Positions 2,087-26,401 are shown, counted from the first letter of the stretch. The stretch is 64,000 bases of DNA from a bacterium (GCA_030698495.1 JAUYKA010000033.1:7840-71839); one strand, 5' to 3'. A program made the numbers and translations. The notes: generated by a model from the sequence alone, not told the origin.

Positions 2087-2213
2087 GGCTTTCTCCTCGT
2101 TCGTATTGTATTTGATTGTGGAAAAAACCGTCCTTGGAATCTACACCCCTACTATTTAGATAAAAATCAAATTTGTCAAGTGCCATTTTGTCAACTGTAA
2201 GTGTTAAATATTG

Positions 2214-2246
2214 ATCACGGGATTTTTGCTGGCGGTGCGGGGATAG
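2214..2246 (+). repeat. Short (33 bp) copy of the 68-bp repeat family (gatcacgggatttTgctggcggtgcgggg).
   Basis: Matches the 3' half of the elements at 16088-16163 and 22282-22355, with one extra T. Confidence 0.6.
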
Positions 2247-2257
2247 GGGCTATATAG

Positions 2258-2605: not shown

Positions 2606-2830
2606 ATCCAGTTGTGTTTTTATATCTATGAAAAAATTGTAATGGTATTTAATCGTGCATTAAATGATAAAAGATTATTAAAGAAAAAACACGACATCCT
2701 TGTCGTGCTTGGGGGCGTTGGTGCACCGTGGCGCGTCCTTGCCGCGACATGGCGGAGGGGGACATTGGCACTTGCCGACGATCTTACCGTTCGTGATTCC
2801 TCTGGGTCGATTCGGTTTGTTTTAATTGAA
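2583..2830 (+). repeat. Repeat element B, copy 1 (about 250 bp, near-identical to 24420-24670). Contains an internal hairpin cacgaca-tcctt-tgtcgtg preceded by A6.
   Basis: Direct sequence comparison shows only 3 substitutions over about 250 bp. Confidence 0.8.
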
Positions 2831-2896
2831 TTTCAGTATACGTTCTTTTTAACTGCTGCTGGAGCCGTTATTGCGGGTGCTCTAGAAATAATTTTA

Positions 2897-3766: not shown

Positions 3767-4077
3767 TCATAGGCACGGTTCAATACCACGCTGGAATTCG
3801 TAAAGAACTCCTTCAGGGTTAACTTTGCCAAAGTTAGTAAAGACAATGACCGGAATTTTCTTGGTTTCTTCCTTATCTTCAATTCGCGCAGCACGTCTAA
3901 GCCGCTACGGTCTTATCAAGCAAGATAGCTTTAGGCTGTTTTTCGACTGTCTGCTTCACGCCTTCGTCGTCAGTTGAAACTGCCACTACCTCAAAACCCT
4001 TGCCTTGGAACTCCACCGTATACATTAGTATCTGGTCTGGATCGTCTTCGATGATAAGGATGAGGGGTTTATTGGGT
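3767..4077 (-). pseudogene. Frameshifted CheY-like response-regulator receiver domain.
   Basis: Three reading frames each carry a consecutive part of a receiver domain: KPLILIIEDDPDQILMYTVEFQGKGFEVVAVSTDDEGVKQTVEKQPKAILLD, then DVLRELK, then IEDKEETKKIPVIVFTNFGKVNPEGVLYEFQRGIEPCL. There are two frame changes within about 60 bp, and no in-frame ATG. Confidence 0.55.
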
Positions 4078-4177
4078 ATAGGTTCTTACCAATTTAGTGT
4101 AAACCGACTTGATTTTTACCGCAATTTACTTCAACTAACTTCATACAGCTCACAAAACACGATTATTAACTTATTAT

Positions 4178-4633
4178 CTAGATTTTACTTCTATAATCCT
4201 CGATTGCCGCTCTTAAAGCTTGATCGCCAAGCACACTGCAATGCACCTTTATTGCAGGCAACCCTCCCAAGCGAGACAAAATGCCCACAGGCCTTAACAT
4301 AAGAGCGTCGTCAATGTGCATACCTCCTTTTTCGGTCACAATAACACTCATCATGCTCGTACTAGCAATAGCCGATGCGCAACCAAATGTCTTCCACTTA
4401 CATTCGGCGATACGATTTTCCCTTACTACAATCCACACCTTCATAACGTCACCGCATTGCGGTGAACCGACTTGTCCTACACCTGAAGCCCGCCTAGCAA
4501 AATCATGCTCATCTTTGTCATTTGTAATGATATTCTGAGGATTGAAAAAATGAGATTTAACGGTATCCGTGTAAAACCAATCGAGACCATCTTCTGCGGC
4601 AGAGTTAACACTCATAAAACTTTTCTCTCTCAA
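4178..4633 (-). CDS. iscU: Fe-S cluster assembly scaffold, NifU/IscU-like.
   Basis: Conserved Cys-containing scaffold motifs (GSPQCGD, GCASAIAS, HCSVL). ATGA start/stop overlap with the upstream cysteine desulfurase. Confidence 0.8.
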   Translation of the reverse strand: MREKSFMSVNSAAEDGLDWFYTDTVKSHFFNPQNIITNDKDEHDFARRASGVGQVGSPQCGDVMKVWIVVRENRIAECKWKTFGCASAIASTSMMSVIVTEKGGMHIDDALMLRPVGILSRLGGLPAIKVHCSVLGDQALRAAIEDYRSKI

Positions 4634-5820
4634 ACATAAACATCCTTCAACTTAATATTTATAGGCGACATCTGACGCAACTTTTCTACGATACTCGGCA
4701 GTTTAGCTAGCAGGAAATCAAGGTGCTGTTGTTTGGTAAAACGACCTAGTGTAAATCGTATACTACCATGCACAGCGTCGCCGGAGACCCCTATGGCTGT
4801 TAAGACATGTGATGGTTTTAGTTTTTTGGAATTACACGCACTGCCTGTCGCAGCATATATTCCCAATTCATTCAGATGCAGTATAAGCGCTTCACCCTCA
4901 ATATCGAGAAAGGTAATATTCACGTTGTTAGGTAGCCTCTGTTTTACGTCTCCATTCAAAATAGTTTTTGGAATAGTCCGTATAACATCTTTAACAAGGT
5001 AATCTCTGAGAGTAGAGAGACGCTCATTTTCAGATGCACAATCAGCTTGCGCGATTTCAAGCGCTTTTGCTAATCCCACTATTCCGGCCACATTTTCCGT
5101 TCCACTACGAATCCCTCTTTCTTGGCCTCCCCCATGAAATATCGGCTGCAAAACAACTCCATTGCGAACATACAATAAACCAATACCCTTCGGTCCATAA
5201 ATCTTACTGCCATTAAGCGTCAGAAGATCAACCTGCAAGGTATTAACATTCAAATCGAGTACCCCGGCAGCTTGACAGGCATCGGTATGAAATAGAATTC
5301 TCCGTTTATGACATATCGCTCCAATTTCAGCGATGGGTTGGATTGTGCCAATCTCATTATTTGCATACATAACCGAAACTAGAATAGTGTCTGGTCGTAG
5401 GGCGGCCCTTATATCCTGCACATTAACTAAGCCACGCTGATCTGGTTTTATATACGTCACTTCAAAATTATTATGTTCCAAAAAACGGCATGTTTCTAAA
5501 ACAGAGACGTGCTCAATCGCTGTGGTAATGATGTGTCCGCTCATTTTTTGACGAGCTACCCCTTGCAAAGCCAAGTTAATACTTTCTGTGCCGCCGCTTG
5601 TAAACACTATTTCACTTAATTGGCACCGTAATATTGTAGCAATTGTTTCTCGTGCCTTCGTGATTGCTCGATAAGCTTCTAGCCCCTTAAAATGCAAGCT
5701 ACCCGGATTGCCATAAAAGACGTTTTCAAGAGGTCGTATAGCGTCTTGCACTTCAGGGTGCAACGGCGTAGCAGCGGCATAGTCTAGATATATATCTTCC
5801 ACATAACTACCATATACCAA
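4630..5820 (-). CDS. iscS: Cysteine desulfurase (IscS/NifS family, PLP-dependent).
   Basis: Aminotransferase class V motifs and the active-site region ATGSACNS. Operon partner of iscU. Confidence 0.85.
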   Translation of the reverse strand: MVYGSYVEDIYLDYAAATPLHPEVQDAIRPLENVFYGNPGSLHFKGLEAYRAITKARETIATILRCQLSEIVFTSGGTESINLALQGVARQKMSGHIITTAIEHVSVLETCRFLEHNNFEVTYIKPDQRGLVNVQDIRAALRPDTILVSVMYANNEIGTIQPIAEIGAICHKRRILFHTDACQAAGVLDLNVNTLQVDLLTLNGSKIYGPKGIGLLYVRNGVVLQPIFHGGGQERGIRSGTENVAGIVGLAKALEIAQADCASENERLSTLRDYLVKDVIRTIPKTILNGDVKQRLPNNVNITFLDIEGEALILHLNELGIYAATGSACNSKKLKPSHVLTAIGVSGDAVHGSIRFTLGRFTKQQHLDFLLAKLPSIVEKLRQMSPINIKLKDVYV

Positions 5821-5886
5821 GTTGCCAACAAGGCAAACGCTTGATTACGATGGTATTATATTTTGATTAATATCGTAGATATAAGG

Positions 5887-6624
5887 ATGTTTAAGCCACC
5901 ACGCCCCAAAATAGGCATCGCCAGCCAAATAACCTCAATTGAAAAGCACGGCAATCTTTTGTTCGTCGTTATAAAAAAGCCAGAAGGCTTTTCCTTTCTG
6001 GCCGGACAATACGTTACTCTTCGACTACCTTCGCTTGAGGGTAAAAGCGAGGGCGTTTGTGCTAGAGCTATGTCATTAGCATCTGCTCCGCACGAGAACG
6101 ACTTAGTCATTGCTATGCAATTAAGCGATTCATTATATAAACAAGAAATGCAAAAACTGTCTGATGGAGATTTAGTTGAAATAGATGGACCATTCGGCTA
6201 CTTCACGATGCATGAGACGCTCGAACCAGCTATATTTCTAGCCGGCGGAATAGGTATCGCCCCTTTTCGGTCTCTCCTGCTCGCAGAAAAAGCAAATGGC
6301 TGGCCGCATGACATTACTTTGTTTTACTCCGTCGGTCATCTTGAGAACGCCGCTTTTTTATCCGAACTCGCTTTATTACAGAATAACCGATTCCGGATAA
6401 TAGTTACCGTAACCCGTTCTCGAATAAATGAGAAATTCGGAGTCACTATGGAAAGCGGCCGAATTTGCACTGCCATGATACAAAAATACGTGTCAAATTT
6501 ACCGGATAATTTTTGTTATATTGTTGGGGCACCCTTGATGGTATCTGATATATATTGCCAATTGTGCGAATCAGACATTGATCCGCGTAAAATAATGACG
6601 GAGCTATTTACTGGATACGAATAA
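5887..6624 (+). CDS. Ferredoxin-NADP reductase-like FAD/NAD(P)-binding oxidoreductase.
   Basis: FAD-binding RxYS-like motif (RAMSLAS) and NAD-binding GGxGxxP (LAGGIGIAPF). Start assigned to the ATG with AAGGA RBS at 5887; the track ORF begins at a TTG at 5863. Confidence 0.6.
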   Translation: MFKPPRPKIGIASQITSIEKHGNLLFVVIKKPEGFSFLAGQYVTLRLPSLEGKSEGVCARAMSLASAPHENDLVIAMQLSDSLYKQEMQKLSDGDLVEIDGPFGYFTMHETLEPAIFLAGGIGIAPFRSLLLAEKANGWPHDITLFYSVGHLENAAFLSELALLQNNRFRIIVTVTRSRINEKFGVTMESGRICTAMIQKYVSNLPDNFCYIVGAPLMVSDIYCQLCESDIDPRKIMTELFTGYE

Positions 6625-6694
6625 TTAACTTAACAATTAGCAACATGCTTCACTAACCCAATACAACGCTATACTACGACACGCATGTAAGTCT

Positions 6695-8563
6695 CTACAT
6701 CTTCTCCGGAACGGCGATACTTAATAAAGCTAGTCCCTTTTTTATCACAAGAGCAACACCGTTGCTCAAAGCCAACCTTGATTCGCGCAACTGCTTGTCT
6801 TCGGTTTTTAGAATCGAAATCTCCCCATAAAAAGCGTTGAATAATTGAGATAATTCCTCTAGGTAAACACAAATTAGGTGAGGAGAGTTGGCTTGCTGAG
6901 CCCTAAGAACAGCCTCAGGAAATAACGCTAATTTTCTAGCCAGATCAAATTCGCTCCGATTTGTGAACGAGAATAATTGCTTAGCCAGGTTATTAAAATT
7001 GATTTGGCCATAGACCTCAACGAACTTCTTAAGCATCGAATTAATGCGGACGTAGGAGTATTGCAGGTAAACCGCACTTTTGCTCTCAAAGTCCAGCATC
7101 TTCTCCCAATCAAACGAGATGTTTTGCATCCTGGATTGATGCAGGTCGTTATAAACAATAGCCCCAATCCCGACTATCTCCGAAATCTTTTCTAACTCTC
7201 CTGGGTCTAAATCTGGATTTTTTTGCAGTAATATTTCCTTGGATTTTTGCACGGACTGGGACATCAGGTCTTCCAGCTCAATGACAGTACCCTGCCTAGT
7301 AGACATCTTTTTACCGTCACGCAACACCATGCCAAACCCAATATGTTTAGCTGTGACATTATCCGGCAAATATCCGGCGCGCCGACTTAACTCAAAAAGT
7401 TGCTGGAAGTTAAGACTTTGCTCATTACCAACCACATAGAGAATAACATCTGGTTGGAAGGTCTTAATCCTGAACCGGAGCGTGGCTAAATCGCGGGTTA
7501 AATAAAGACTAGATCCGTCTTGCTTTCTTAAAAGGAAAGATGGAATACCGCCCATCTGATCCACCACCACCGCAGCGGACGCCTCATCTTTTCTAGCCAA
7601 GCCTTTGGCCAGATATTCATCCACGATCCTATCTGCTTGCTCAACGAAGTAGCTTTCACCGATATTGGTGTCGAATTTGATGCCCAAACGGTGATAGATC
7701 CGCTCAAAATCTTTGATGCTCAAATCCCGAAACCGCTTCCATAGTGCGACTAGTTTAGGGTCTTTCTTCTCTAGTCTTGCGAATAACTCGCGAGCCTTGT
7801 CCTTCACTTCCGGATGTTCTTCGGCAAAATAGTGAAATTGAACATATAAATTTTTGAGCTCTTTGATGGGATTCTCTGCTACTTTTTTTTCGTCACCCCA
7901 CTGCTGGTAAGCGTAAATGAGGGAACCGAATTGCGTTCCCCAATCGCCCAAGTGGTTGTCTCTGATTACACTGTAACCGGTTGCGTGATAAATCTTGGCC
8001 AGGGCTTGCCCGATGATGGTGGATCGCAAGTGGCCAACCCCCAACGGTTTAGCTATATTGGGCGCAGAATAATCTATTAGAGCGACTAGACCAGCATTTA
8101 CATTGCTCTCTCCATAATGGTCGCCTAGTTCAAAAATATTGGCCAGAATGTTTTGATAAAAGATCTTCTGACGCACTTCAAGATTTACAAACGCTCCCAC
8201 AACTGAGGCTTTTTCAATAAAGATTGTCTGGTCTTCGCCAATACCCTTAGCAATTTTATTTGCCAGTACATTTGGATTCTCTCTGAGCTGCTTAGCTAGA
8301 CCAAATCCCCCTAATGCAAAGTCGCCAGGTATATGTGGCGGCGGTACTGATAGTTCTATTTCTGCCATCTCATGGATACCTGTTACTTCTTGCACGACCC
8401 TCCTTACTTCTTTTTTGAGTTGCTCAAGTGGATAGCTGGAAAAATCGATATATTTCCGATTTTCTTTTTCTGCCTGAAGATTTTTATCCACAACGTCAAC
8501 AGCTTGAGCCAATTCCAATCTGTATTGTTCAAACTCGTCCTGGTTGCTATCTTTTGTGTTCAT
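6695..8563 (-). CDS. argS: Arginyl-tRNA synthetase.
   Basis: Class I HIGH-region (SAPNIAKPLGVGHLRS), ArgRS-typical HLGDWGTQFG motif, 622 aa. Confidence 0.85.
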   Translation of the reverse strand: MNTKDSNQDEFEQYRLELAQAVDVVDKNLQAEKENRKYIDFSSYPLEQLKKEVRRVVQEVTGIHEMAEIELSVPPPHIPGDFALGGFGLAKQLRENPNVLANKIAKGIGEDQTIFIEKASVVGAFVNLEVRQKIFYQNILANIFELGDHYGESNVNAGLVALIDYSAPNIAKPLGVGHLRSTIIGQALAKIYHATGYSVIRDNHLGDWGTQFGSLIYAYQQWGDEKKVAENPIKELKNLYVQFHYFAEEHPEVKDKARELFARLEKKDPKLVALWKRFRDLSIKDFERIYHRLGIKFDTNIGESYFVEQADRIVDEYLAKGLARKDEASAAVVVDQMGGIPSFLLRKQDGSSLYLTRDLATLRFRIKTFQPDVILYVVGNEQSLNFQQLFELSRRAGYLPDNVTAKHIGFGMVLRDGKKMSTRQGTVIELEDLMSQSVQKSKEILLQKNPDLDPGELEKISEIVGIGAIVYNDLHQSRMQNISFDWEKMLDFESKSAVYLQYSYVRINSMLKKFVEVYGQINFNNLAKQLFSFTNRSEFDLARKLALFPEAVLRAQQANSPHLICVYLEELSQLFNAFYGEISILKTEDKQLRESRLALSNGVALVIKKGLALLSIAVPEKM

Positions 8564-8692: not shown

Positions 8693-9472
8693 TTACTTAT
8701 TGCTATATGTCCTTATCATATCTTGTGCGATTTTGATTTTTAAATTCTTATCTCTTTTATAGAATATGGAGCCTTTTGCTTGCTTTTCATCGCAATGCCT
8801 AACTTTTACCGCCCAGTTTTCGAAAAAAGCGATAGGAATGTTATTCTTAACAAATTCATTTGAAATAACATCCTCATAATTGCAATCATCTGTATACTTG
8901 GAAAAATTATAGATTCCATTGCTATGTGCAAAATCTAAAAACCTTTGATTGTGATAAACCAAAAAATGAGATGACACTCTATTAACGTCCCTAACATTTT
9001 TTTCTAGCGGACGACCAATATCTTCCAACTTCCACACCCAACAATCATAATCAATTACACTGGAAATTAAACATGTTTCTGGATGTCTATCAAAAAAAGC
9101 AGATATCTCCCCCAAGGCGTCATAATCATTTTTTTCCAAAACCGCAATAACATCACTTTCAATCTCTATCGTGTAGTCGCTTTTACCAGAAAGAGCATGA
9201 AAGTGAGCATTATTAGACGGATCTCCAGGACAAATAAAGTTCTTGTTCGCTTTATTTCGTATCCTTACTTCGTCAATATTGAGTTTGTCACGAAAGTGAA
9301 TAATTTGTTCTATAGAGCTGTCGGTTGCTCCGTCAACTTGCGCAATGACTTCGTATTTACAGCTTGAATTTTTAGTTAATGCATCTACGCTGATAGGCAA
9401 TGTTATATTCCAAAGATCAAGCTCATTTGCCACAATGGATATTATTTGAAATTTTGGTCGGTCATTCAACAT
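8693..9472 (-). CDS. GT2-like glycosyltransferase (GT-A fold), last gene of the AT-rich operon.
   Basis: N-terminal IISIV...EVIAQVDGATDSS resembles the DxD/DGSTD region of family-2 glycosyltransferases. Very low GC. Confidence 0.4.
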   Translation of the reverse strand: MLNDRPKFQIISIVANELDLWNITLPISVDALTKNSSCKYEVIAQVDGATDSSIEQIIHFRDKLNIDEVRIRNKANKNFICPGDPSNNAHFHALSGKSDYTIEIESDVIAVLEKNDYDALGEISAFFDRHPETCLISSVIDYDCWVWKLEDIGRPLEKNVRDVNRVSSHFLVYHNQRFLDFAHSNGIYNFSKYTDDCNYEDVISNEFVKNNIPIAFFENWAVKVRHCDEKQAKGSIFYKRDKNLKIKIAQDMIRTYSNK

Positions 9473-11400
9473 ACCGAAGAATCATAAACAGCATAATCTC
9501 CATCTTCGCTAAATAAGCTGGAGCTACTGTTTTTAATCCACAACGGAAAATATCTTTTATTTCTTTCACCAAAAACTACCGCTCGAGAAGGCATTGGATT
9601 GACTGTTGATTCTTCCCCATTTTTATTAAATGCAAGAATTCCAATAATCTCAGGCACAAGCAAACAAGATCTGTTTTTATCATTGATTGTTATATTAAAC
9701 CCGATTTCTTGCGTTCCTACTGGAATGGGGAATTCTAAGACATTTTCTTCTTTCACTATGCCAGTTGTATCGTGAGAAGCAGTGTCTTTAAATGGCACTT
9801 CTATAAAACCAGTATTTTGTTTGTGCTCATGAACAACTAAATCTCTTTTCTTTCTAAGCGTATATTTTTCATACTCAGCAACGTCTTTATAGAAACAAAT
9901 CTCATCCCACTGATATTTATGTTTGACACTCTTATCGATAAGAATATTTATTTCATCCAAATGATCACCCACAACTCTCACTCTCAACTTATGATTGCTA
10001 AAAGAAAGAAAGGTTGTATGTTCCTTCATCGTTACACAAACTTCTTCTTGTCCAATGCGGCCTATGATCCTTGGGGAAAACGCACCCCTCCCTTGGGGCG
10101 GGACTGCATTAATCGCACCGGAAAAATATGGATTTCCCAATTTTTCTAAAACACCTCTTCTTTTTTCTATTAGCTCAGATATAAAGTAAGACTGTAGTTT
10201 AATAAAATGTTTTATGAGTTGGCATTTTACACCGTCCGGTTTTTTAACAGTCTTATTCACAAGCCACCCCTGATAATAACAACCGCCGCCGCATAAATAT
10301 CTTGCCCAACATTTATTACATGGCTTCCTATTCTCAACGGTTTGGTTCATAAAGAGATCCTTTGCGGCCTCACTCACGCCTTCTTCTATACTGCCAATAT
10401 CTTGCCCTTTAGCCCCTACGAAATGAGCGCAAGGATACAATTTCCCATCCCAATCAACATATAATCCTGATTTTCCACAATTGCATCGATATCTCAATAT
10501 CGATCTATTTAATATTCTATAAAAATATCTGAAAAAATAATCCTCTGGGTTTATTGCTTTTAGATACTGCGCAAGCTCATCGTCAGAACTAGCGAGTAGA
10601 AAATCTATGAATTGGCTATATGCTTGTTTAAACTTCGGCAGATTTTCCTCATTCAAAGCAAAGCTTTCTTCGTGGCCGCTATTGACCGGCTTCATGTAAA
10701 TCGATGATTTTATGCCTAGATCAAAAATGTGTTTAAAATTTTTAGAGATATCCAATGTCTCCGCTGTTATAACAGAACAAGCGCCAATGTCGATTTTTTC
10801 CCTTATGGCAAATTGAATTAATTGAGCCAGATCATTATAAGTGCCCTTTTTATTCTTATATCTTCTAAATTTATCATGGTCTTCTTGCACTCCGTCGATA
10901 CTTATGTCCATTGGACTGCCTAAACGTTTTACCATTTTATCGGGAGTAAATATCAAACCGTTAGACATATTAGCTCCCACCCAAACAGTCTTATTGAATT
11001 TTTTACATAGCTTTTTAATGTGGTCTTTTAAGATTTTGTGATACCCCTCAGCGATAAAAGGTTCTCCGGCAACACCAAAATCAATTCTGGCAAACCTCTG
11101 ATCTTCCGATAAGCTCTTAAAAAACAAATCGATTGCCTCTATCGCGGTTCTCATGGTCATCATTTTCGTATTATTTTCCAGTTCTCGTTTCCGAAATACA
11201 CAATACCGACAATCCAAATTACATGACATTGATATACATAATTGAAGCTGTGGGCTTATTTCCTTGAATTCTTTTTTCCACTTAGAAGGCTTACTGTTGG
11301 GTAAATCTGGAATGCTTACACCAAAATCATCTATGCAAAAAACAGAGGATGTGTTTTCATCTATTGCGAATTTTTTATTCTTATGTGTAAATTTTTTCAT
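9466..11400 (-). CDS. Radical SAM enzyme with a SPASM domain and a roughly 230-aa C-terminal extension of unknown function (644 aa).
   Basis: CNLDCRYC (Cx3Cx2C) near the N-terminus. SPASM-type Cys clusters CNCGKSG...C and CNKCWARYLCGGGCYYQG. Confidence 0.8.
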   Translation of the reverse strand: MKKFTHKNKKFAIDENTSSVFCIDDFGVSIPDLPNSKPSKWKKEFKEISPQLQLCISMSCNLDCRYCVFRKRELENNTKMMTMRTAIEAIDLFFKSLSEDQRFARIDFGVAGEPFIAEGYHKILKDHIKKLCKKFNKTVWVGANMSNGLIFTPDKMVKRLGSPMDISIDGVQEDHDKFRRYKNKKGTYNDLAQLIQFAIREKIDIGACSVITAETLDISKNFKHIFDLGIKSSIYMKPVNSGHEESFALNEENLPKFKQAYSQFIDFLLASSDDELAQYLKAINPEDYFFRYFYRILNRSILRYRCNCGKSGLYVDWDGKLYPCAHFVGAKGQDIGSIEEGVSEAAKDLFMNQTVENRKPCNKCWARYLCGGGCYYQGWLVNKTVKKPDGVKCQLIKHFIKLQSYFISELIEKRRGVLEKLGNPYFSGAINAVPPQGRGAFSPRIIGRIGQEEVCVTMKEHTTFLSFSNHKLRVRVVGDHLDEINILIDKSVKHKYQWDEICFYKDVAEYEKYTLRKKRDLVVHEHKQNTGFIEVPFKDTASHDTTGIVKEENVLEFPIPVGTQEIGFNITINDKNRSCLLVPEIIGILAFNKNGEESTVNPMPSRAVVFGERNKRYFPLWIKNSSSSLFSEDGDYAVYDSSVC

Positions 11401-11407
11401 GTCTTAT

Positions 11408-13084
11408 TCAAATTACCTTATATCTAGTTTTTATATCCTGCAAAGCGCCGGCTAGTAATTCATATTTTCCTAATCCCTCAATCTTACTATTTCTAATACA
11501 AATTAAGTCATTTATAATACTCTTCAGTTCCAACCTCGCTTTGTCTGGACATATTTTTAGTTTCTCAAAAACCTCCGGAGAGGCAACCTCTTGGTTATTC
11601 ATAAGCGCTATCCTAGTAACTAGAAACCTCGCCTCTTCAAATAATGATTTAAAAGTTGATATTGTTCTTGTTTTCTCATATTCTGTTTGTTGCTTCCATA
11701 ACGCATCCTTGTAAACTATCCTTTTGTATCTCTCTAAATACTCAAGAAACAATTTGTTATTTCCAGAAACCAATCTTAACTCAAATACCTCAAAAAGATC
11801 CCTTGATTCACCATTTACTACTACGTCTTTTTCTACAGGCCTACCATGAGTCCCCTCGGATCTAACTCCGAGATACGCAAGTAATTCACATGTCAAATTT
11901 TCAATTGGAATAACTGGATAAGTTTTATTGCCTTTAAACATAACAATTTCAAAATCAAGATCGCTTTCCTTGGTTAAAACAAATTCTCCGTATGACCCCC
12001 TGGCTATAATATTTATCTCTGCATAATCTATGTCGACTAACCCACATACTGCTTTAACGATGCTTCTTAGAATGTCGTCATAAATTTCAGCGCTACAGTC
12101 TTTCTGTGCTTCTTTAATTGTATTGATCATTTTCTTATACCCCGCTTCATCGCCCAGAGCGACGATTAGGCTTGCTAAATGAAACTTTGCCTGGTTTCCT
12201 TTTTTAACAGCCATGATTTTTTTCGTTATGCCTAATAATACCCTGAGATCGTCAATACTATTTTGTCTTTTTTTGTACATCAGTAGCGTCCACGTGAAGG
12301 ATATTCTTGCGGAAACTAATTCATCTACAAAATGTCCAACCTCGAATGGTCTCGAATCTTTGTTGATTAATGGTTTTTCTGCATCAATAGTCAATTGGTC
12401 AAAATAATTGAAAAATTTATTTCTGTCTTGATATGCCATGGTTTTCCATCCAACCTTTTCAACTCTGTCCATCTTTCTAGCTTTATTGGAAAAACAATAC
12501 TTGCGTTCAAGAAGTTTGACATATTCCTCGACCAAATCTTCTTCAAAGGATTGAAATAAATTGATTTTCAAAAATAATAGATACCTTCGATCTATACCCG
12601 AATCTTCAACCTTAAATAATTTCTCAAAATCTATTAAGAAGTATGTTTTATTCAAGTAAAACATATTACGTAGCGCTAACCCCCTCCAAAGATAACCGTT
12701 TTGAAGAAAATGATTGTTTATACGAACCACATCTTCAAAAAGCAACTCCTTGTTCATCAAAGGATTCTGGTTCAATGGAAGCCCTAAATCCTCAAAAATA
12801 AAGAAACTATCTGCCCTGCTAATAGGCATTAAGACCTTAGCATCTGTTACATTATTCTTACGCAATAGCTGGTCTGCTAACTTTAGATTTTCTATTTCTT
12901 TCTGTTTGCATTTTTTAATGATATAACTTTTGTTTTTAATCCTAGAATATATTTTAATTACATCATTTTTAAATGGATTAACATTTTCTAGTTCAAGAAC
13001 TCGTAAATCATTTTCTCTTGTTATAATGCCTTTCCTTTTTAATAACTTGATAATTGCACTGTTCATAAAATTTAACTCCAGCAA
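11408..13084 (-). CDS. Two-domain protein: N-terminal aminoglycoside/choline-kinase-like fold (IDFE Brenner-type motif, non-canonical catalytic loop) followed by a Pol-beta-type nucleotidyltransferase domain (GS-x10-DLDFE).
   Basis: Motifs YLWRGLALRNMFY...FLIDFEKLF and ARGSYGEFVLTKESDLDFEIV read from the translation. Confidence 0.5.
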   Translation of the reverse strand: MLELNFMNSAIIKLLKRKGIITRENDLRVLELENVNPFKNDVIKIYSRIKNKSYIIKKCKQKEIENLKLADQLLRKNNVTDAKVLMPISRADSFFIFEDLGLPLNQNPLMNKELLFEDVVRINNHFLQNGYLWRGLALRNMFYLNKTYFLIDFEKLFKVEDSGIDRRYLLFLKINLFQSFEEDLVEEYVKLLERKYCFSNKARKMDRVEKVGWKTMAYQDRNKFFNYFDQLTIDAEKPLINKDSRPFEVGHFVDELVSARISFTWTLLMYKKRQNSIDDLRVLLGITKKIMAVKKGNQAKFHLASLIVALGDEAGYKKMINTIKEAQKDCSAEIYDDILRSIVKAVCGLVDIDYAEINIIARGSYGEFVLTKESDLDFEIVMFKGNKTYPVIPIENLTCELLAYLGVRSEGTHGRPVEKDVVVNGESRDLFEVFELRLVSGNNKLFLEYLERYKRIVYKDALWKQQTEYEKTRTISTFKSLFEEARFLVTRIALMNNQEVASPEVFEKLKICPDKARLELKSIINDLICIRNSKIEGLGKYELLAGALQDIKTRYKVI

Positions 13085-14733
13085 GCTGGACTATTACCCC
13101 CGGAAGTGCAAACTTCCGTTTCTTTGGCCCCACCTAAGTTTATCAGACTGTCTATCTCATTATTATACTTATTGATAGTCTCCTCTATGGCTATAGCCAA
13201 TAGTTCATTAGACTGCCACAGACTTTCCTTATCAGTTGAAGGATTACCAATAGTTGTACCAATCACTGTATATGTAATTTTTTCATCATTAGTAATTTTC
13301 CGATTAAAATCATTCAACTTAAACTCATCCATGCAGACATTACCTGCTTTATACAATCGGTCAGAAACCATACTTGTATACTTGCTCACCAAAGAACTGA
13401 TTGCGTTTTTGTCCTTAACGCGCTTAATATCATCTAGTCTTCTTTTGGGAAATACCACAAAAGAAATTCTATAAAAATCTAGATCGTTAAAAACTATAAC
13501 ATTTTCATTTTTCATTAAAATTTGATACCAATAATTTGCTAAATACTGCCTCCGTTCAATTAACTTACCGATAGCTCTCAATCCGATCCCCTTGATTGTT
13601 AACCAGAGCTTCAGAGACTCAAAGCCTCTTGACCCCATGAATGGCGTAGCTAAACCTAAATCCAAATACTCTTTAGCATTAACCTTATCGGGGTACCTAG
13701 AAAAAACATTTGTGGAATTAGGATTTTTAAACAAAACATAACTGCTAGAGTAGGGAATAAACAATGACTTGTGAGGATCTAACGACACTGAGTCTGCGTT
13801 CTCTATGCCTTTTAATAGGTGTTTGTATTTTTCTGAAAACAAAAAACTACCGCCATGGCATGCATCAACGTGCAACCAGACATTATACCGCTGACACATG
13901 CGAGAGATAGCTTCCAGATCATCTAAACCGCTAGTCCTACAATTTCCCGCGACCGCCACGACAAAAAATGGGATTTGATCTTTTGCAGAATTCTCAATAG
14001 CGTTTTTAATATTCAGCACCGAGGATGTGTAATTTTTTCCTGGCTCAGCCCAGATAATCGAATTAGATCCTAGTCCCAACCATGAGCAAGCGCTTTTATA
14101 GGAATAATGCTCAATACCCCTAGTCATTACGATGACTGGTTTTTGCTCAACAGAATGAATGCCCCGTTCCTTGATTGAAGGAAATCTATTATTTAACGCA
14201 GTCAGTAAGGCCACATAGTTAGAAAGATTGCCCCCCGTAGTCCACATACCACCAACCTTAGAAAGGGAATTAATCTCTGGCAGTGGTATAGTTTGATATC
14301 CTATTAATTCTCTTAACCAGTTTATAAGCTGGATTTCTATTATTGTTCCTATAGGAGCACTCCGATCAAAAGCTATCTGATTTTGATTTAAAAACTGAGA
14401 ATATATTGCTCCACCAATTGCATATTTCGAATTTCCGCCATCGGGAAAAGCAAGATATTTCTTATCAGCTTGAAGAATCGAGTATTCACCGATCATGTCT
14501 AATAATTTATCCAGATCATTGTCTGAAATTGAATTCTGCGGAATATGTTCGTCAAGTAAAAAGCGCAGCTCTTTGGGGCTCATATAATTAAACACTTTAT
14601 TTTTTCGTAATTTACCCGAATAGAAGTCCAGGCCTTTCCGAATAAACTTATGAAAAAAATCTTCCTCCAATAATGCTTTTTCGGAAGGATCTAGCAAGTA
14701 TTGTGAAACAAATTGGGAGTCTATTTTTCTCAT
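13072..14733 (-). CDS. Group II PLP-dependent amino-acid decarboxylase.
   Basis: MWTTGGNLSNYVAL, HVDACHGGSF and SLDPHKSLF (PLP-lysine) motifs. 553 aa. Confidence 0.75.
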   Translation of the reverse strand: MRKIDSQFVSQYLLDPSEKALLEEDFFHKFIRKGLDFYSGKLRKNKVFNYMSPKELRFLLDEHIPQNSISDNDLDKLLDMIGEYSILQADKKYLAFPDGGNSKYAIGGAIYSQFLNQNQIAFDRSAPIGTIIEIQLINWLRELIGYQTIPLPEINSLSKVGGMWTTGGNLSNYVALLTALNNRFPSIKERGIHSVEQKPVIVMTRGIEHYSYKSACSWLGLGSNSIIWAEPGKNYTSSVLNIKNAIENSAKDQIPFFVVAVAGNCRTSGLDDLEAISRMCQRYNVWLHVDACHGGSFLFSEKYKHLLKGIENADSVSLDPHKSLFIPYSSSYVLFKNPNSTNVFSRYPDKVNAKEYLDLGLATPFMGSRGFESLKLWLTIKGIGLRAIGKLIERRQYLANYWYQILMKNENVIVFNDLDFYRISFVVFPKRRLDDIKRVKDKNAISSLVSKYTSMVSDRLYKAGNVCMDEFKLNDFNRKITNDEKITYTVIGTTIGNPSTDKESLWQSNELLAIAIEETINKYNNEIDSLINLGGAKETEVCTSGGNSPACWS

Positions 14734-14815: not shown

Positions 14816-15913
14816 TCAATAATATGTTTCGCCAAAAGAGATGTTATCCCCCTCTATCGATATTAAGGCTGCCCTTTGCGGATCAATAATTGGCGTTGTC
14901 ATATACATGTCTCGACCATTATATCGACCACTAGTTATCCTAGCAGCCATACGACAACCACCCTCGCATAACATCAAGGCGTTGCACGTTCGACATTCTT
15001 CTGGAAGCATTTTTGGCGATGCCCAAGATTTCATCCTCAGCCAAGTACTCAAAAATTTATCTGGTAAAACGTTGCCAAAGACAACGTCAGAATGGACGCA
15101 TGGTCTCATCGTTCCCGCTGATGAAACAACACAAGACGATACTGCGGCTGAGCAAATTCTGTTTCCGAAGAAACGAACAAACTCTGCTTCTTCGCGCTCA
15201 CCAAAAAGACACCTAGCGACCGGTTCAAGAACATCAACTTTGAGGGACAACTCCTTGTCTATGCGCATCAACTCTCTTAAGCAACGCTTACACTCTACCC
15301 CCGAAAGACAAAGGGGTATATTCGCTCTACATGACGGTAACATGGGGCCTGCACAGAAAGTGCTAACCCCGAGACGCTTTAAGGCCAGAGCTGTATCAAA
15401 TATGAAGTCTAGATTCATTTTTGATACGACCATATTAACGGCAACAGAAAGGTTAACCGCCAATAGACTTTCTATGCCCTTGATAGTTCGGCCGTAATTA
15501 CCACCAGCCCCGGCAATAGTGTTGTGTATGTCCTCTGGACCAAGCACTGAAACCAAGACATGCTTTAAGCCTTGCTCCTTTAGCGCTCGCGCATCTTTGC
15601 ATTGAATTAGAGCCGCATTTGTGTTAAGTCCCGTTTCAATTCCATATGACGTTGCAAGAGCAATGAGCTTAAGCAAGATTTCTTTTCGAAGCATCGGTTC
15701 GCCACCCGTAAACGTTACTAAGCCCACTTTAGCATCTCGCAACTGATCAATGACCATGCTATAGTCATTCATCCCTAATTCGTCTTGGTCTTTTACGAGA
15801 CTATGCCTCCAATAGTTGTAGCAGTGTCTGCATTCTTGATTGCACTGCGAAGTCAATTCTATTTGTACATCTAATGGCGCTGAGAGCCTTTCCATTGCTT
15901 GTCCTCCAAACAA
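14816..15913 (-). CDS. Radical SAM/SPASM-domain maturase-like enzyme (365 aa), first gene of the operon.
   Basis: CNQECRHC radical-SAM motif. C-terminal CSAAVSSC...C and CRTCNALMLCEGGCRMAA SPASM clusters. Confidence 0.8.
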   Translation of the reverse strand: MFGGQAMERLSAPLDVQIELTSQCNQECRHCYNYWRHSLVKDQDELGMNDYSMVIDQLRDAKVGLVTFTGGEPMLRKEILLKLIALATSYGIETGLNTNAALIQCKDARALKEQGLKHVLVSVLGPEDIHNTIAGAGGNYGRTIKGIESLLAVNLSVAVNMVVSKMNLDFIFDTALALKRLGVSTFCAGPMLPSCRANIPLCLSGVECKRCLRELMRIDKELSLKVDVLEPVARCLFGEREEAEFVRFFGNRICSAAVSSCVVSSAGTMRPCVHSDVVFGNVLPDKFLSTWLRMKSWASPKMLPEECRTCNALMLCEGGCRMAARITSGRYNGRDMYMTTPIIDPQRAALISIEGDNISFGETYY

Positions 15914-16309: not shown

Positions 16310-17380
16310 ATGAGCTGCACAGCTGAAGCGACCGAGGAGGTTGGCCATCACGAGACAAAACGAGACTATTTGCTGGTGATGGACCTGCCGGAGATGGTGC
16401 ACGGTCTGCGCCTGACCGGGCTGAACGTTCCGCCGCGAAACCATGACATCTTTGCCAAGATCAAGGAAGATCTGGCGAAGCTGTTCGGTGTAGTGATGCC
16501 CAAGTACGTCGGTGAAAGCGAGATCACCCTGAAGGTGATCGATATGCAAGAGCTGTCTGATCAGATACTGGCCAAGGCGGTGCAGATGGTCGACAGCATG
16601 AAGCAAGGCTACATTGTGAGCACTTGCATGGATATCGCAAGCATTGTGCTTCACGGCAAAGTCTTCGAAGCTAACCGGCTGATCGACAATACTGGCTCGG
16701 TATTGGGTATCGGACCTAGGCCGGGGCACTATAGCCTGCGGAAGCAGGTGGAAAGCGTGATCACGGACGCGGCTGGTCAACCCATTATCCTGGTGGAAGA
16801 CGGGTTGTTTACCGGGACGACGATGTACGAGGTGATCCGCGAGTTTCAGGCGCGCGGTGCGGAAGTCGAAGCGGTGGTGCTTGGCTTCGCGTTTCCGAAA
16901 GCGAAAGATAAGCTGGCGTCGCTTGCCATGGCACCGAGTGTTCATACGGTCGAGACGGTTCATAATCCGCTCGACTGGGTGCCCGATCACGACTTCTTCC
17001 CGTTCGTGCCCAATTGCGGCCGGGTACTGGGAACTCGTATCAATGGCCAGGTTCATCCGATTTACTCGCATCTGGGGTTCTCGTACAGCGTGCCCTATCT
17101 GTACGGATTCTGCCCCATGGGCGATTGGATCGGCCTGTCGTTGTCGGAGGCACAAGCGAGGGAGCTGACTTGGAACATCCTTCATCTGGACTGCGAGCTG
17201 TTCAGGGTCATCGATGCGATGAACGGTGGAAAAGGCTTCAAGCTCCATGAGTTGGGCAACGCCAGGCCACGCGTTTCCATCCCCTACCGCGTCAATCAGA
17301 AGCATCTGCCGGAGAACGAGAACGATATGACTATCGGCAGGCATCTGGCGGAAGAGACGATGCGCGCCAGTCCGCACTAG
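16310..17380 (+). CDS. Phosphoribosyltransferase-domain protein with a C-terminal extension.
   Basis: PRPP-binding motif ILVEDGLFTGTT. GC-rich. The antisense ORF 16265..17389 is judged an artefact. Confidence 0.55.
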   Translation: MSCTAEATEEVGHHETKRDYLLVMDLPEMVHGLRLTGLNVPPRNHDIFAKIKEDLAKLFGVVMPKYVGESEITLKVIDMQELSDQILAKAVQMVDSMKQGYIVSTCMDIASIVLHGKVFEANRLIDNTGSVLGIGPRPGHYSLRKQVESVITDAAGQPIILVEDGLFTGTTMYEVIREFQARGAEVEAVVLGFAFPKAKDKLASLAMAPSVHTVETVHNPLDWVPDHDFFPFVPNCGRVLGTRINGQVHPIYSHLGFSYSVPYLYGFCPMGDWIGLSLSEAQARELTWNILHLDCELFRVIDAMNGGKGFKLHELGNARPRVSIPYRVNQKHLPENENDMTIGRHLAEETMRASPH

Positions 17381-17389
17381 CGACAACAC

Positions 17390-17425
17390 AGCCGCTTTCT
17401 AACAAAAGAAAGCGGCTTTTCAATA
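17390..17425 (+). terminator. Rho-independent terminator after the PRTase gene.
   Basis: agccgctttct/agaaagcggct stem followed by a TTTT run. Confidence 0.6.
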
Positions 17426-17482
17426 TATGAAAAACCGAATTCATATGGGTGAATATGAATTCGGTTGATGGCTTGCATGGTG

Positions 17483-18130
17483 TCAGCCGGCAAGAACGGT
17501 TCTGTTGTTTGGGGTGACATGCTCAACGAAAGAGAGAACATCGGAGAAGCAGAGATCCGCGTCGGCGCAATCGCTTCCAATTATAATCGTGCGCATGCCG
17601 AGTGATTTGGCGGGCAGGAGGTCTGTGTTCCAGTTATCGCCTATACTGTAGGCGTTGGTCGGAGAGATTTTATACCGGCGCAGACATTCGAGAAAGACTC
17701 TGGAGGTGCACGTCCATTTTACGGGACATGTTTCCGGTTCTCGCCAACCAATGACATCGTCGAAGTCGGAAGAAAGATATCCCAGCTTGGCCAACATCGC
17801 ATGCGCCATATACGTTGGCGAGCCGGTGTAGACCACTTTTTTCCCGGATAGCGACCGGGTTGCGGCTACAATATCAGGCTGCGGAACGATAAGTTCCAGG
17901 GGAGCGGCACAGAGTCGTTTCGCCCAGGCGCTAAAAGGGATGTTCAGGGCGGACAGCGCCAGTTCTCCCCGTCCTTGGCAGGCTTGTCGAAAGTAGGCAA
18001 GCATAGTCATGCCCTCATCTCCGCTGAATTCTTTAATCAATTGTTCCAGCGTCCTTGAATAAACGGTGGTATAGAACTCTGGATTTCTATTGAGAGTACC
18101 GTCTAGGTCGAACACGAAAAGACGTTTCAT
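17483..18130 (-). CDS. HAD-superfamily hydrolase.
   Basis: Motif I FVFDLDGTL. Confidence 0.7.
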   Translation of the reverse strand: MKRLFVFDLDGTLNRNPEFYTTVYSRTLEQLIKEFSGDEGMTMLAYFRQACQGRGELALSALNIPFSAWAKRLCAAPLELIVPQPDIVAATRSLSGKKVVYTGSPTYMAHAMLAKLGYLSSDFDDVIGWREPETCPVKWTCTSRVFLECLRRYKISPTNAYSIGDNWNTDLLPAKSLGMRTIIIGSDCADADLCFSDVLSFVEHVTPNNRTVLAG

Positions 18131-18209
18131 CGTTTTCTCCACTCAAAGTTGTAAGGAACATCTTTTAGGCAACCAGAAGTATGATAACTGTCAAATGATG
18201 ATTATCGCG

Positions 18210-18923
18210 CTACTGATTGTCTAAAAATTCGGTGGTTTTAGTGGTGGCAAATCGCAGGCATTCTTCTGCCGGTTTTTGTCGCAGATAGTTGATTATGTAG
18301 TAAGCAAAAAAGGTGTCGCCGGCGCCGATGGAGTGGTTAAATTCAATTTTGGTATCAGGTGCGGAAATATATTTTTTACCTTTGGCAAAGAGGACGCTTC
18401 CTTTATCTCCATTGGTAACGATGAGCATCTTTTGTTTCAATGTGTCTACTGCCTCTGGCGGCAGATATTCAATTTCTTCCGCCGTTGCTTTCAAGCAGCT
18501 AATGGCATTAATTGTGTCTGAAGTAATATTCCATTGATGTTTTTTGCCATGGGTAATTCCTTCTCGCACATACCCCTGAATATCAATAAATACTAGACCC
18601 CGGTATTCAGATAAACCGGTAAGACTGATTTCGTTTAGAACGGAAGAAATAATTAGTGCCCGATTTTTGATGGCAGCAAAGTTTACCGACAATACGGGCG
18701 GCTCGTAGGTAATGCGGCCGAATTCTCCGTCTTTAGTAATTTTAACTTCTACCTCGGCTGTTGGGGGCGCCATGACATCAAAAGCGCAGTTTTCTTTTTT
18801 AAATATGTTAGACAGGAAAAAGGCAGGGCCGCCGGGCTGTTCTTTTAGCAATTTGCCGGTTTCGTCCACCAGGCGATCGTTAGCAAAGGTCGCCAGGAGA
18901 GCAATGTCTTTAGGCTTGTTCAT
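18210..18923 (-). CDS. PfkB-family (ribokinase-like) carbohydrate kinase.
   Basis: C-terminal NHSIGAGDTFFAYY signature (GAGD anion hole). Confidence 0.6.
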   Translation of the reverse strand: MNKPKDIALLATFANDRLVDETGKLLKEQPGGPAFFLSNIFKKENCAFDVMAPPTAEVEVKITKDGEFGRITYEPPVLSVNFAAIKNRALIISSVLNEISLTGLSEYRGLVFIDIQGYVREGITHGKKHQWNITSDTINAISCLKATAEEIEYLPPEAVDTLKQKMLIVTNGDKGSVLFAKGKKYISAPDTKIEFNHSIGAGDTFFAYYIINYLRQKPAEECLRFATTKTTEFLDNQ

Positions 18924-19461
18924 ACTGTTGACGGGCTGATTTAACGGCCATTTTGACTGCTTCCTCACTGTTAGTTGCTGATTGTACTTGAATGCGTTTT
19001 CTACTGTCTAAATACTCTCCAGCTAATTTGTCAGCCCAACCGCCTGTTCCAGTCAGGGCAATTATGGGTATACCGGCTTGATAGGCAATGGCTGCCTCCG
19101 TGAGTGTTCCGGATCCGCCGCTGATTAGAATTATAGCGTCGCAACTTAGAACTAGCGTTAGTTCTCTGCCGCCGCCACGCTCAAGACCAGTAGCAATAAC
19201 CACGTCGGTGTTTTTTTCACGAATGTTTAGTCCCTTTCCGTAAGTAACACCAATGGTTAACCCACCGGATTTTTTAGCACCGCGGGCGGCGGCAGTAGAC
19301 AAGGAATCAACATCTTTTTCCGCACCAAAGACCAATACGGCACCAGCTTTAGCTAGACGAGAGCCGATATCTTCCGCAATTTCAGCGATTTTCTGGGAAT
19401 ATTTTTGATCGGCAGCTGATCCCATAACGCCTATTTGTAGTTTTCGTTGATTGGTATTCAT
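18910..19461 (-). CDS. LOG-family (TIGR00725-type Rossmann) protein, cytokinin riboside 5'-monophosphate phosphoribohydrolase-like.
   Basis: PGGxGTxxE motif (ISGGSGTLTEAA). 183 aa. Confidence 0.7.
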   Translation of the reverse strand: MNTNQRKLQIGVMGSAADQKYSQKIAEIAEDIGSRLAKAGAVLVFGAEKDVDSLSTAAARGAKKSGGLTIGVTYGKGLNIREKNTDVVIATGLERGGGRELTLVLSCDAIILISGGSGTLTEAAIAYQAGIPIIALTGTGGWADKLAGEYLDSRKRIQVQSATNSEEAVKMAVKSARQQYEQA

Positions 19462-26397: not shown

Positions 26398-26401
26398 AAA
26401 T

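Follow-up and report, generated by a model that had tools for sequence, protein, structure and literature searches.

KinNT, a kinase-like/nucleotidyltransferase fusion from a sporadic bacterial gene cassette with its own arginyl-tRNA synthetase

What might a bacterium make with a protein that joins a kinase-like fold, bearing glycine in place of the catalytic aspartate, to an intact nucleotidyltransferase (NTase), and why does the gene for it travel with an arginyl-tRNA synthetase (ArgRS) of its own? The question is raised by an open reading frame (ORF) on the minus strand, 11408..13084, of a 64,000-nucleotide stretch of bacterial DNA (GCA_030698495.1 JAUYKA010000033.1:7840-71839; the window, in what follows), whose product we name KinNT for its kinase-like/nucleotidyltransferase fusion. 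The evidence assembled here defines KinNT as the signature gene of a horizontally mobile, uncharacterised cassette, and it suggests a pathway, not yet characterised, that has to do with arginine or with ArgRS. The functional readings offered are what we infer from sequence, predicted structure and gene neighbourhood. Residue numbers follow the ORF of 558 aa that is obtained on starting at TTG.

The two modules of KinNT

The C-terminal module is shown by predicted structure and motifs to be an intact Pol-beta NTase of the GlnE/DrrA/aminoglycoside-nucleotidyltransferase (ANT) class. Its conservation, and that of the kinase half, was read from an alignment of 29 sequences from several phyla, covering the whole family at about 20% identity to the window protein.

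11411..12094, minus strand: NTase of the GlnE/DrrA/ANT class with C-terminal helical subdomain, residues 331-558 (AlphaFold2 model, Foldseek)
11954..11998, minus strand: G363-S364-x10-D375-x-D377, the G-x11-D-x-D catalytic motif (G363, D375 and D377 invariant in the 29 members)
11825..11827, minus strand: Asp420, predicted third catalytic carboxylate in R415-P-x-E-x-D420 (invariant; on model strand E421-423)

A separate model of residues 322-558 (predicted local distance difference test, pLDDT, 91.2) finds its best Foldseek match in the AMPylation domain of Legionella DrrA (6yx5_B, E 1.3e-4, TMq 0.56), followed by both NTase domains of E. coli GlnE (3k7d/1v4a; E 6.7e-4) and then, among further neighbours, by AadA (5g4a, E 9e-3), ANT(9), ANT(4') and the MntA antitoxin. 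The top neighbours are all O-adenylyltransferases, with the RNA-tailing enzymes Cid1, TUT and CutA ranking lower; the relation to AadA and the ANTs is one of fold likeness, PDB searches having given no sequence-level match. The Pol-beta superfamily signature, G[SG]-x9-13-[DE]x[DE] followed by a carboxylate on a later strand, is present, D420 presumably supplying that third carboxylate. Residues R362, G363, S374, D375, D377, E379, E395, R415, P416, D420, R428, E432 and R486 are invariant in all 29 sequences, and S364 and E418 are at least 90% conserved. In Pfam, NTP_transf_2 is matched weakly by three of the ten close members, and distant relatives link the family to NTP_transf_2, GlnE and DUF294. 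The NTase motif proposed in a preliminary description of this locus is confirmed in its catalytic residues as well as in its structural neighbours. Membership of the GlnE/GlnD family, which that description would have taken as telling against its proposal, is not what we find: KinNT lacks the Pfam or NCBIfam match and differs in architecture, with one NTase domain behind a kinase fold in place of a tandem NTase or an NTase+HD+ACT arrangement.

The N-terminal module was assigned on an AlphaFold2 model of full-length KinNT built on a 10-sequence alignment (pLDDT 83.2; predicted template-modelling score, pTM, 0.77).

12095..13066, minus strand: protein-kinase-like (PKL) module, residues 7 to about 330, with N-lobe, catalytic loop, IDFE and helical C-lobe (AlphaFold2, Foldseek)
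12914..12916, minus strand: Lys57, predicted beta3 ATP-binding lysine (at least 90% conserved; on model strand E52-58)
12665..12688, minus strand: W133-R-G135-L-A-L-R139-N140, equivalent of the catalytic loop, with Gly at the site of the HxD Asp (conservation)
12623..12634, minus strand: I151-D152-F-E154, metal-binding motif of the DFG/Brenner type (D152 invariant, 12 residues after N140)

The bilobal kinase fold of the PKL superfamily is recovered in the model and by Foldseek, which returned 162 matches to the PDB at E<=1e-3; all 50 of those listed are kinases at probability 1.0, headed by human RioK1 (4otp, E 3e-5, TMt 0.48) and then Rio2, Syk and Abl. Kinase-only relatives span profile positions 42-334, and distant relatives that retain the Asp match Pfam ABC1 (24.5 bits, above cut-off), Pkinase, RIO1, Choline_kinase and APH. 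The scores for Choline_kinase (0.034) and APH (0.085) come only from a distant Asp-containing relative, there being no match to either Pfam family among 10 close members even at E<=10. The kinase fold anticipated in the preliminary description is borne out by the model, the Foldseek matches and the Pfam matches of the relatives.

The residues that serve ATP and Mg binding in the PKL superfamily are in place, with K57 and E63 at least 90% conserved and N140 and D152 invariant at a spacing of 12 residues. The catalytic-base Asp of HxD is replaced by Gly135 in the window protein. This replacement, which the preliminary description had noticed, is a property of the family: Gly occupies the position in 50 of 52 fused representatives, with Asp in the other two, and in 7 of 11 kinase-only representatives, and six proteins only (P0009, P0011, P0069, P0078, P0080 and P0082) have Asp. 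The family loop can be written G[IV]xWxG[FL]xPRN, followed by [LI]ID[WFL]E[DK]. Invariant in 29 of 29 sequences are R139, N140, D152 and D206, and conserved to at least 90% are W133, G135, E209, E236, G250 and H251. Since the Gly is conserved amid an otherwise intact ATP site, Gly135 appears itself to be selected and not to reflect the simple decay of a pseudokinase. The earlier label of pseudokinase holds insofar as Gly stands at the Asp site; the status that the label implies is not established, given that K57, E63, N140 and D152, together with R139 and a run of acidic and His residues in the C-lobe, are kept across phyla. The module probably binds nucleotide and may carry out an atypical reaction, the Gly loop suggesting that nucleotide is bound while the chemistry, or the activation of the acceptor, is changed. 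An acid-rich, conserved block of the helical C-lobe, LDxFE ... TLxSExP ... PxxxGHxxDE, is shared with the kinase-only relatives and is a candidate pocket for a cationic substrate.

All motif strings quoted in the preliminary description were found (YIIKKCK with K57, W133-R-G135-L-A-L-R139-N140, I151-D-F-E154 and G363-S364-x10-D375-L-D377-F-E379), and because they are conserved across phyla in the 29-sequence alignment they are no chance matches. The reading frame itself calls for a correction at its 5' end.

11408..13066, minus strand: KinNT coding sequence, 552 aa plus stop (GGAG, decarboxylase stop, starts of homologues and of the NCBI protein)

With the TTG start, the opening six codons run into the end of the decarboxylase gene that lies upstream. 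An ATG at 13066, placed by TGGAGTTAAATTTTATG, lies 5 nt past the decarboxylase stop and 10 nt past GGAG, the junction of the two genes reading TGGAGT-TAA-ATTTT-ATG. Because all homologues and the NCBI model (deposited protein of 552 aa) begin at this Met, and the ATG follows both GGAG and the decarboxylase stop, the true coding sequence is most likely 11408..13066.

Members of the family are rare: 10 full-length relatives (42-60% identity) and one partial relative, from Bacillus velezensis, came from a word-indexed search over 5.8 billion clusters, and 78 proteins at E<=1e-3 from an exhaustive profile search of 1.84 billion cluster representatives. The window protein had zero matches in scans of Pfam, NCBIfam and PADLOC. 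Sequence searches of the PDB (phmmer and profile) gave nothing significant, the sole alignment, at an insignificant E of 0.8, being that of residues 105-153 by profile to the catalytic loop and DFG of the KSR pseudokinase (GILHKDLKSKNVFY...ITDFG). Of the apparent NTase-only relatives, at least one (P0037) is a fragment on a short contig beside the same radical S-adenosylmethionine (rSAM) enzyme as in the cassette. The isoelectric point (pI) spans 5.1 to 9.7 across the family; a uniformly basic pI, as a sign of nucleic-acid binding, was not found. Both folds of KinNT are well known already, and literature searches on the fusion or the cassette found no description. Four things appear to be new: the KinNT family itself, for which Pfam and NCBIfam have no profile; a selected Gly at the catalytic-base position; the combination of a PKL module with a GlnE-class NTase; and the cross-phylum cassette with its own ArgRS.

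The cassette around KinNT

The strongest contextual clue, missed by the preliminary description, is the link of KinNT to a pyridoxal 5'-phosphate (PLP) decarboxylase, a protein resembling glycosyltransferases of the GT-A fold, and an ArgRS paralogue. KinNT is tied to these three across phyla, and a large rSAM enzyme is present in nearly all loci. The window has KinNT as the third of six co-directional, tightly packed genes, the other five of which are as follows, with the decarboxylase tail given its own line.

14816..15913, minus strand: smaller rSAM/SPASM enzyme, 365 aa, NirJ/AhbD/PqqE-like (library matches)
13072..14733, minus strand: group II PLP decarboxylase, 553 aa (Pfam Pyridoxal_deC, 1.7e-45)
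13075..13089, minus strand: extreme C-terminal tail of the decarboxylase, P-A-C-W-S, an instance of the family-wide [SG]PA[GSC]W
9466..11400, minus strand: large rSAM/SPASM enzyme, 644 aa, with PapB/SCIFF/QhpD-like core and C-terminal extension of about 230 aa (library matches)
8693..9472, minus strand: GT-A/GT2-like protein, 259 aa (Glycos_transf_2 matches in two of seven members, 8.8e-5)
6695..8563, minus strand: ArgRS with Add-1 N domain, catalytic domain and DALR domain (domain matches)

Identified by tblastn of the window proteins against the cassette loci, the same partner genes surround every KinNT homologue locus retrieved. The identities of the four main partners are these.

PLP decarboxylase: 40-47%; 31% in L013, a metagenome-assembled genome (MAG); off the end of L011
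Large rSAM enzyme: 30-39%; missing from the Bacillus locus and from the short L016 contig (Ca. Thiodiazotropha)
GT-A-like protein: 29-37%; no match in L021; contigs L007 and L011 stop short of the gene
ArgRS: 32-39%; L021 and L026 lack a match at the level of the window protein; contigs L007 and L025 not long enough

Of these partners the decarboxylase shows the highest conservation. The loci comprise the window's own lineage (L001-L003), B. velezensis CP178718 (L004), a high-GC metagenomic lineage (L005/L006), GCA_030429175 (L007), GCA_001729995 (L009) and 17 GTDB genomes retrieved by the pattern R[DE][LY]HEWxEL. The latter are 11 Kitasatospora loci, two Streptomyces including S. rubellomurinus ATCC 31215, one Dactylosporangium, and for the remainder a Rhizomonospora, an Actinomycetota MAG and Ca. 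Thiodiazotropha; the distribution is sporadic. Actinomycetes have the order ArgRS (divergent), KinNT, rSAM, GT1/GT4 glycosyltransferase, second rSAM, decarboxylase, GT-A-like protein and sulfotransferase, followed by an APS-kinase-like P-loop protein and a convergent methyltransferase. Extra glycosyl- and sulfotransferases often accompany the cassette, and accessory genes outside the actinomycetes include a nucleoside diphosphate (NDP)-sugar epimerase with a sulfatase-fold protein in L001/L003, an epimerase also in L009, a MATE exporter in the L007 operon, and sugar-nucleotide and carrier-protein genes in Bacillus.

An ArgRS occurs on each fetched contig long enough to reach it, L021 and L026 being without a match as close as those to the window protein elsewhere. 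Kitasatospora sp. NPDC056446 (L014/L018) has two cassette copies of 82-85% nucleotide identity over about 11.5 kb, each with its own ArgRS, the pair being 91% identical; because each of two copies in one genome carries its own ArgRS, the synthetase is a cassette gene and no accident of synteny. The cassette enzymes consist of N-terminal, catalytic and DALR domains; the structures to which they align best are ArgRSs of the E. coli and yeast types, and the actinomycete version scores 461 bits against an NCBIfam argS cut-off of 262. At the HIGH motif and the KMSTR/PFKTR loop most cassette ArgRSs read HVGH...PFKTR, those of the window lineage GVGH...KMSTR and the Bacillus one SIGH...KMSTR. The idea of an altered HIGH motif shared by all was rejected, as only the window lineage and Bacillus deviate and the others have HVGH; the KMSTR/PFKTR loop is kept in all copies where it can be read. 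Residues N169, Y354, D358 and Q382, which from yeast ArgRS we take to be arginine-binding, are invariant in five aligned copies.

The decarboxylase has as its nearest solved structures CSAD, GADL1, GAD65/67 and 2,4-diaminobutyrate (DABA) decarboxylase, and it also resembles Lys decarboxylases, so that its likeness is to enzymes for acidic and for cationic amino acids. Its chain ends in the invariant [SG]PA[GSC]W, set off by a variable linker of ~20 aa and followed by 0 or 1 residue (SPACWS, SPAGWN, SPASW, GPAGW), as seen in the window and in L001, L003, L004, L005, L009, L015, L016, L020, L021 and L026. This PAxW tail might plug the active site, or serve for docking or as a carrier arm. The large rSAM enzyme lacks the N-terminal RiPP recognition element (RRE) region of the SCIFF/Nif11 maturase models, its match starting at model positions ~80-97 and protein residue ~50. 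The smaller one is weakly conserved (24-29% identity to the second rSAM of L005, L017, L022 and L023). The GT-A-like protein, an unnamed family with no PDB match, has the invariant residues E68-x-R70-x-R72, G83-D84, N87-N88-x-H90, E105-x-D107, C144-W145, N164-R165, S168-H169, N198-Y-E-D201 and H226-C-D228.

A variant locus bears on the age of the association. On the metagenome contig L029, the kinase-only protein P0073 (Gly form; 1872-3146) lies between an rSAM enzyme and a distant PLP decarboxylase, in a series that runs rSAM (456 aa), kinase-like-only protein, an unknown protein of 348 aa, the decarboxylase and an HD-domain protein in which a GS...DFD-like stretch was seen by eye. Because this kinase-only protein is likewise flanked by an rSAM enzyme and a PLP decarboxylase, the partnership of the three is older than the fusion. 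The four central genes of the window (8693-14733) have 33-37% GC compared to 42-56% in the flanks, a difference that suggests horizontal acquisition. The flanks are housekeeping in character: to one side lie NifS, NifU and an FNR-like gene, and to the other a phosphoribosyltransferase (PRTase)-like gene, HAD, PfkB, an SLOG protein and HisRS. The stretch 16310-19461, immediately upstream of the cassette (PRTase-like gene on the plus strand, HAD hydrolase, PfkB-type kinase fragment, SLOG cluster-4 protein of LOG-like type), looks nucleotide-centred and is not conserved beside the cassette at other loci. Farther off in the window, 25813-27103 encodes an AbiEi-like antitoxin paired with an AbiEii nucleotidyltransferase toxin, a type IV toxin-antitoxin system.

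Defence or mobility genes adjoin some cassettes: a pPIWI-RE Argonaute-like module at 3863-6847 in the Kitasatospora loci L019/L020, and in L009 (1747-3202, 14128-19695) a phage integrase, KilA-N and a 1855-aa Eco57I/helicase protein. PADLOC has no match for KinNT, the GT-A-like protein or ArgRS, and the cassette is no defence system listed there; generic likeness only was returned for the rSAMs (to pVip) and, weakly, for the decarboxylase (to SspA/DndA).

Proposed function and competing explanations

The reading we prefer, held tentatively and with rather more doubt than conviction, is that KinNT nucleotidylates a small molecule derived from the decarboxylase reaction, and that ArgRS provides immunity or supplies Arg-tRNA. 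The partner decarboxylase would generate a small, cationic, amine-bearing intermediate. The Asp-less kinase-like module, with its acidic C-lobe (D206, E209, E236, H251, D254/E255), would bind nucleotide and/or this cationic substrate and would then either present it to the NTase site or perform an atypical, priming phosphoryl transfer. The NTase module would pass a nucleoside monophosphate, most likely AMP, from the nucleoside triphosphate to a hydroxyl or phosphate of the intermediate, and the nucleotide-linked product would be elaborated by the rSAM enzymes and the glycosyl- and sulfotransferases. The cassette ArgRS would most likely shield the producer from an ArgRS-directed product; supply of Arg-tRNA for one step is the alternative. 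The idea of a resistant copy is suggested because aminoacyl-tRNA synthetases (aaRSs) encoded in biosynthetic gene clusters, ArgRS among them, act as self-immunity and mark the target, as described for the tiarins (preprint 10.64898/2025.12.02.691738). Only trifolitoxin surfaced in a literature search for natural inhibitors of ArgRS.

A bolder proposal, possible if doubtful, is that the cassette makes a hitherto unknown, non-ribosomal, nucleotide-linked mimic of arginine, a natural analogue of arginyl-adenylate, with ArgRS as the resistant copy of the target. The decarboxylase would remove the carboxylate of an arginine-like precursor, KinNT would forge an AMP (phospho)ester imitating the aminoacyl-adenylate, and the rSAM, glycosyl- and sulfotransferases would decorate or mask the product. 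In a still more exotic variant, intermediates would be built on the PAxW arm of the decarboxylase using Arg-tRNA, by analogy with pearlin-type scaffold biosynthesis.

Several points weigh against nucleotidylation of a small molecule in an ArgRS-linked pathway. The structural matches are remote (TM 0.4-0.56, 9-12% identity), and the two best are protein-AMPylating enzymes, leaving room for a protein target. The loss of the catalytic Asp speaks against ordinary kinase activity, and what role the N-terminal module has is guesswork. The large rSAM enzyme is nearest to the peptide/protein thioether maturases PapB, SCIFF and QhpD, a likeness more in keeping with a peptide or protein as substrate. 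In the window lineage the ArgRS of the cassette might be the housekeeping copy, and no universally conserved transporter was found across the cassettes.

The explanation that survives best beside this one, unlikely as we consider it, is a protein AMPylation switch, comparable to the action of GlnE upon glutamine synthetase or of DrrA upon Rab1, in which the NTase would adenylylate Tyr, Ser or Thr of ArgRS, of the decarboxylase or of its tail region, and the kinase-like domain would be a regulatory or docking module that senses nucleotide or ligand. DrrA and GlnE, the two best NTase neighbours (E 1.3e-4 and 6.7e-4), are both protein adenylyltransferases, MntA, which AMPylates its HEPN partner, is also among the structural matches, KinNT adjoins ArgRS in actinomycetes, L005, L009 and L016, and the decarboxylase offers an invariant flexible tail. 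The aminoglycoside ANTs, however, score nearly equal to the protein AMPylases, KinNT is not beside ArgRS in Bacillus or in the window, and the invariant P, A and W of the tail are not AMPylatable, with no conserved Tyr, Ser or Thr found there.

Distinctly unlikely is a route resembling the Kennedy pathway, in which the decarboxylase would yield an amino alcohol, the kinase-like module would phosphorylate it with a non-canonical base, the NTase would join the resulting phosphoester to NTP, yielding an NDP-activated amine, and the GT-A-like protein would transfer that amine onto a glycan or other acceptor. The core that persists most consists of decarboxylase, kinase-like module and NTase, also at the distant L029 locus, and GT-A-like, GT1, NDP-sugar epimerase and sulfotransferase genes accompany it; the ATP-binding residues are fully conserved, IDFE resembles the motif of choline/ethanolamine kinases, and a relative weakly matches Choline_kinase/APH. 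Yet the catalytic Asp is missing in 50 of 52 fused members and ArgRS is left without a role. To our knowledge, moreover, Pol-beta NTases of the GlnE/ANT class are known for transfer to hydroxyls and not for NDP-X synthesis of the pyrophosphorylase type.

It is improbable that KinNT is a self-resistance or prodrug enzyme, an APH-like/ANT-like fusion that would mask a toxic product in the producer, in the way known from aminoglycoside producers, and would be redundant with a resistant ArgRS. AadA, ANT(9) and ANT(4') are indeed structural neighbours, relatives of the kinase module weakly match APH, and KinNT and ArgRS frequently lie side by side, an arrangement that immunity genes often show; set against this, KinNT opens the actinomycete biosynthetic operon, is located mid-operon in the window, and is universally conserved in the cassette, as expected of a core biosynthetic step.

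Very improbable is the original suggestion that KinNT nucleotidylates a ribosomal peptide cross-linked by the neighbouring PapB/QhpD-like rSAMs, as in the tailoring of a peptide made on the ribosome and modified after translation (RiPP). The large rSAM enzyme does most resemble peptide maturases, and L005 encodes, at 7632-7796 on the minus strand, a Gly-rich ORF of 54 aa, in which a double-glycine-like leader precedes a poly-Gly core (MDKKSLVDQLLEDMEASKSDVLH-GGGGGGGGGGGGFDTAFDGTNWGGGGGESAA). The KinNT homologue of the same locus (P0030, 10001-13153, 1050 aa), which adjoins an ABC/HlyD exporter, is extended at its C-terminus by a region with an HExxH motif and an HlyC-type acyltransferase domain, features not seen in other lineages. 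The 54-aa ORF, however, is confined to L005/L006, with a counterpart in no other locus. Scans for small ORFs in the window and related loci found no conserved precursor across about 25 cassettes, the operons of the window and the actinomycetes are packed too tightly to hide one, and the RRE region is absent from the rSAM enzyme. On these grounds the cassette is not an evident RiPP system, and the notion of a peptide made by the neighbouring rSAMs is weakened with it.

An RNA-directed function, with the NTase acting on tRNA-Arg or Arg-tRNA in the manner of MenT/CCA-adding enzymes, or with the cassette as an anti-phage system manipulating arginine decoding, is scarcely credible: ArgRS is constantly associated, RIO kinases, the best kinase-fold match, are RNA-associated, and some cassettes lie in mobile or defence settings (the L009 integrase, KilA-N and Eco57I-like helicase; pPIWI-RE in L019/L020), but no tRNA gene occurs at any cassette locus, for which reason a tRNA-recoding module was also dropped, pI is not uniformly basic, PADLOC has no match, and Cid1, TUT and CutA score below the adenylyltransferases.

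Returning to the small-molecule nucleotidylation that we favour, there is a genuine prospect that the product of the cassette belongs to a new class of metabolite, directed at ArgRS or dependent on Arg-tRNA. If so, a kinase fold with Gly for Asp and an intact ATP site would join SelO and SidJ in non-kinase chemistry, and an adenylyltransferase of the GlnE/DrrA class would be found at work in secondary metabolism. A functional context would be gained for some 80 orphan protein clusters and for at least two further families without a name, those of the GT-A-like protein and the tailed decarboxylase, and the culturable Kitasatospora, Streptomyces and Bacillus velezensis that carry the cassette would offer a testable lead to such a natural product.

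Relation to known systems

KinNT shares with GlnE and DrrA/SidM a Pol-beta core followed by a helical subdomain and the G-x11-D-x-D spacing, which has been described for GlnE, DrrA and kanamycin NTase. Unlike GlnE, it has a single NTase in place of the tandem AR/AT pair and is fused to a kinase-like domain; unlike DrrA, it has no GEF or P4M domains. Neither Pfam GlnE (PF03710) nor GlnD_UR_UTase is matched directly, and the annotated neighbourhoods showed neither a glutamine synthetase nor a PII gene. AadA/ANT(3'')(9), ANT(9) and ANT(4') are two-subdomain NTases of similar size, about 250-290 aa, and their transfer of AMP to hydroxyls of cationic small molecules is the chemistry proposed for KinNT, whereas as stand-alone resistance proteins of 11-13% identity they have neither the kinase fold nor a cassette of decarboxylase, rSAM and ArgRS.

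With RIO, ABC1/UbiB and choline/APH kinases, KinNT has in common the PKL fold, the beta3 Lys, the alphaC Glu, the loop Asn and the DFG-like Asp. It differs from them in having Gly for the HxD Asp within a W-x-G-[FL]-x-P-R-N loop and in being without the GxGxxG glycine-rich loop, and the window protein matches none of these Pfam families. Kinase-fold enzymes that do other than O-phosphorylation are exemplified by SelO, an AMPylase with a flipped-ATP active site, and SidJ, a glutamylase; KinNT may likewise put the fold to such a use. KinNT is not a member of SelO/YdiU (UPF0061), to judge from the lack of a Pfam match and the absence of SelO among the structural matches listed.

Kinase/NTase bifunctionality has precedents in other folds, among them HldE, FKP, CobU and LicA/LicC. 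Together with ethanolamine kinase plus ECT, these systems unite an amine from a decarboxylase with kinase and NTase steps to give a nucleotide-activated building block for a transferase, and the neighbourhood of decarboxylase, KinNT and GT-A-like protein is shaped alike. Their NTase is of the GT-A/cytidylyltransferase or P-loop type, their kinase keeps the catalytic base, and we know of no aaRS in any of them. Clusters with a resistant aaRS include those of albomycin (SerRS), mupirocin (IleRS) and agrocin 84 (LeuRS). The KinNT cassette is set apart from the tiarin clusters by its other biosynthetic enzymes, with neither TfxB/TfxC-type enzymes nor a precursor peptide, and by an immunity role that we infer. 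Like the tiarin and trifolitoxin-ArgRS clusters, it has an aaRS, probably an extra copy, travelling along, and in the tiarins the ArgRS specificity of the cluster copy predicts the target (10.64898/2025.12.02.691738).

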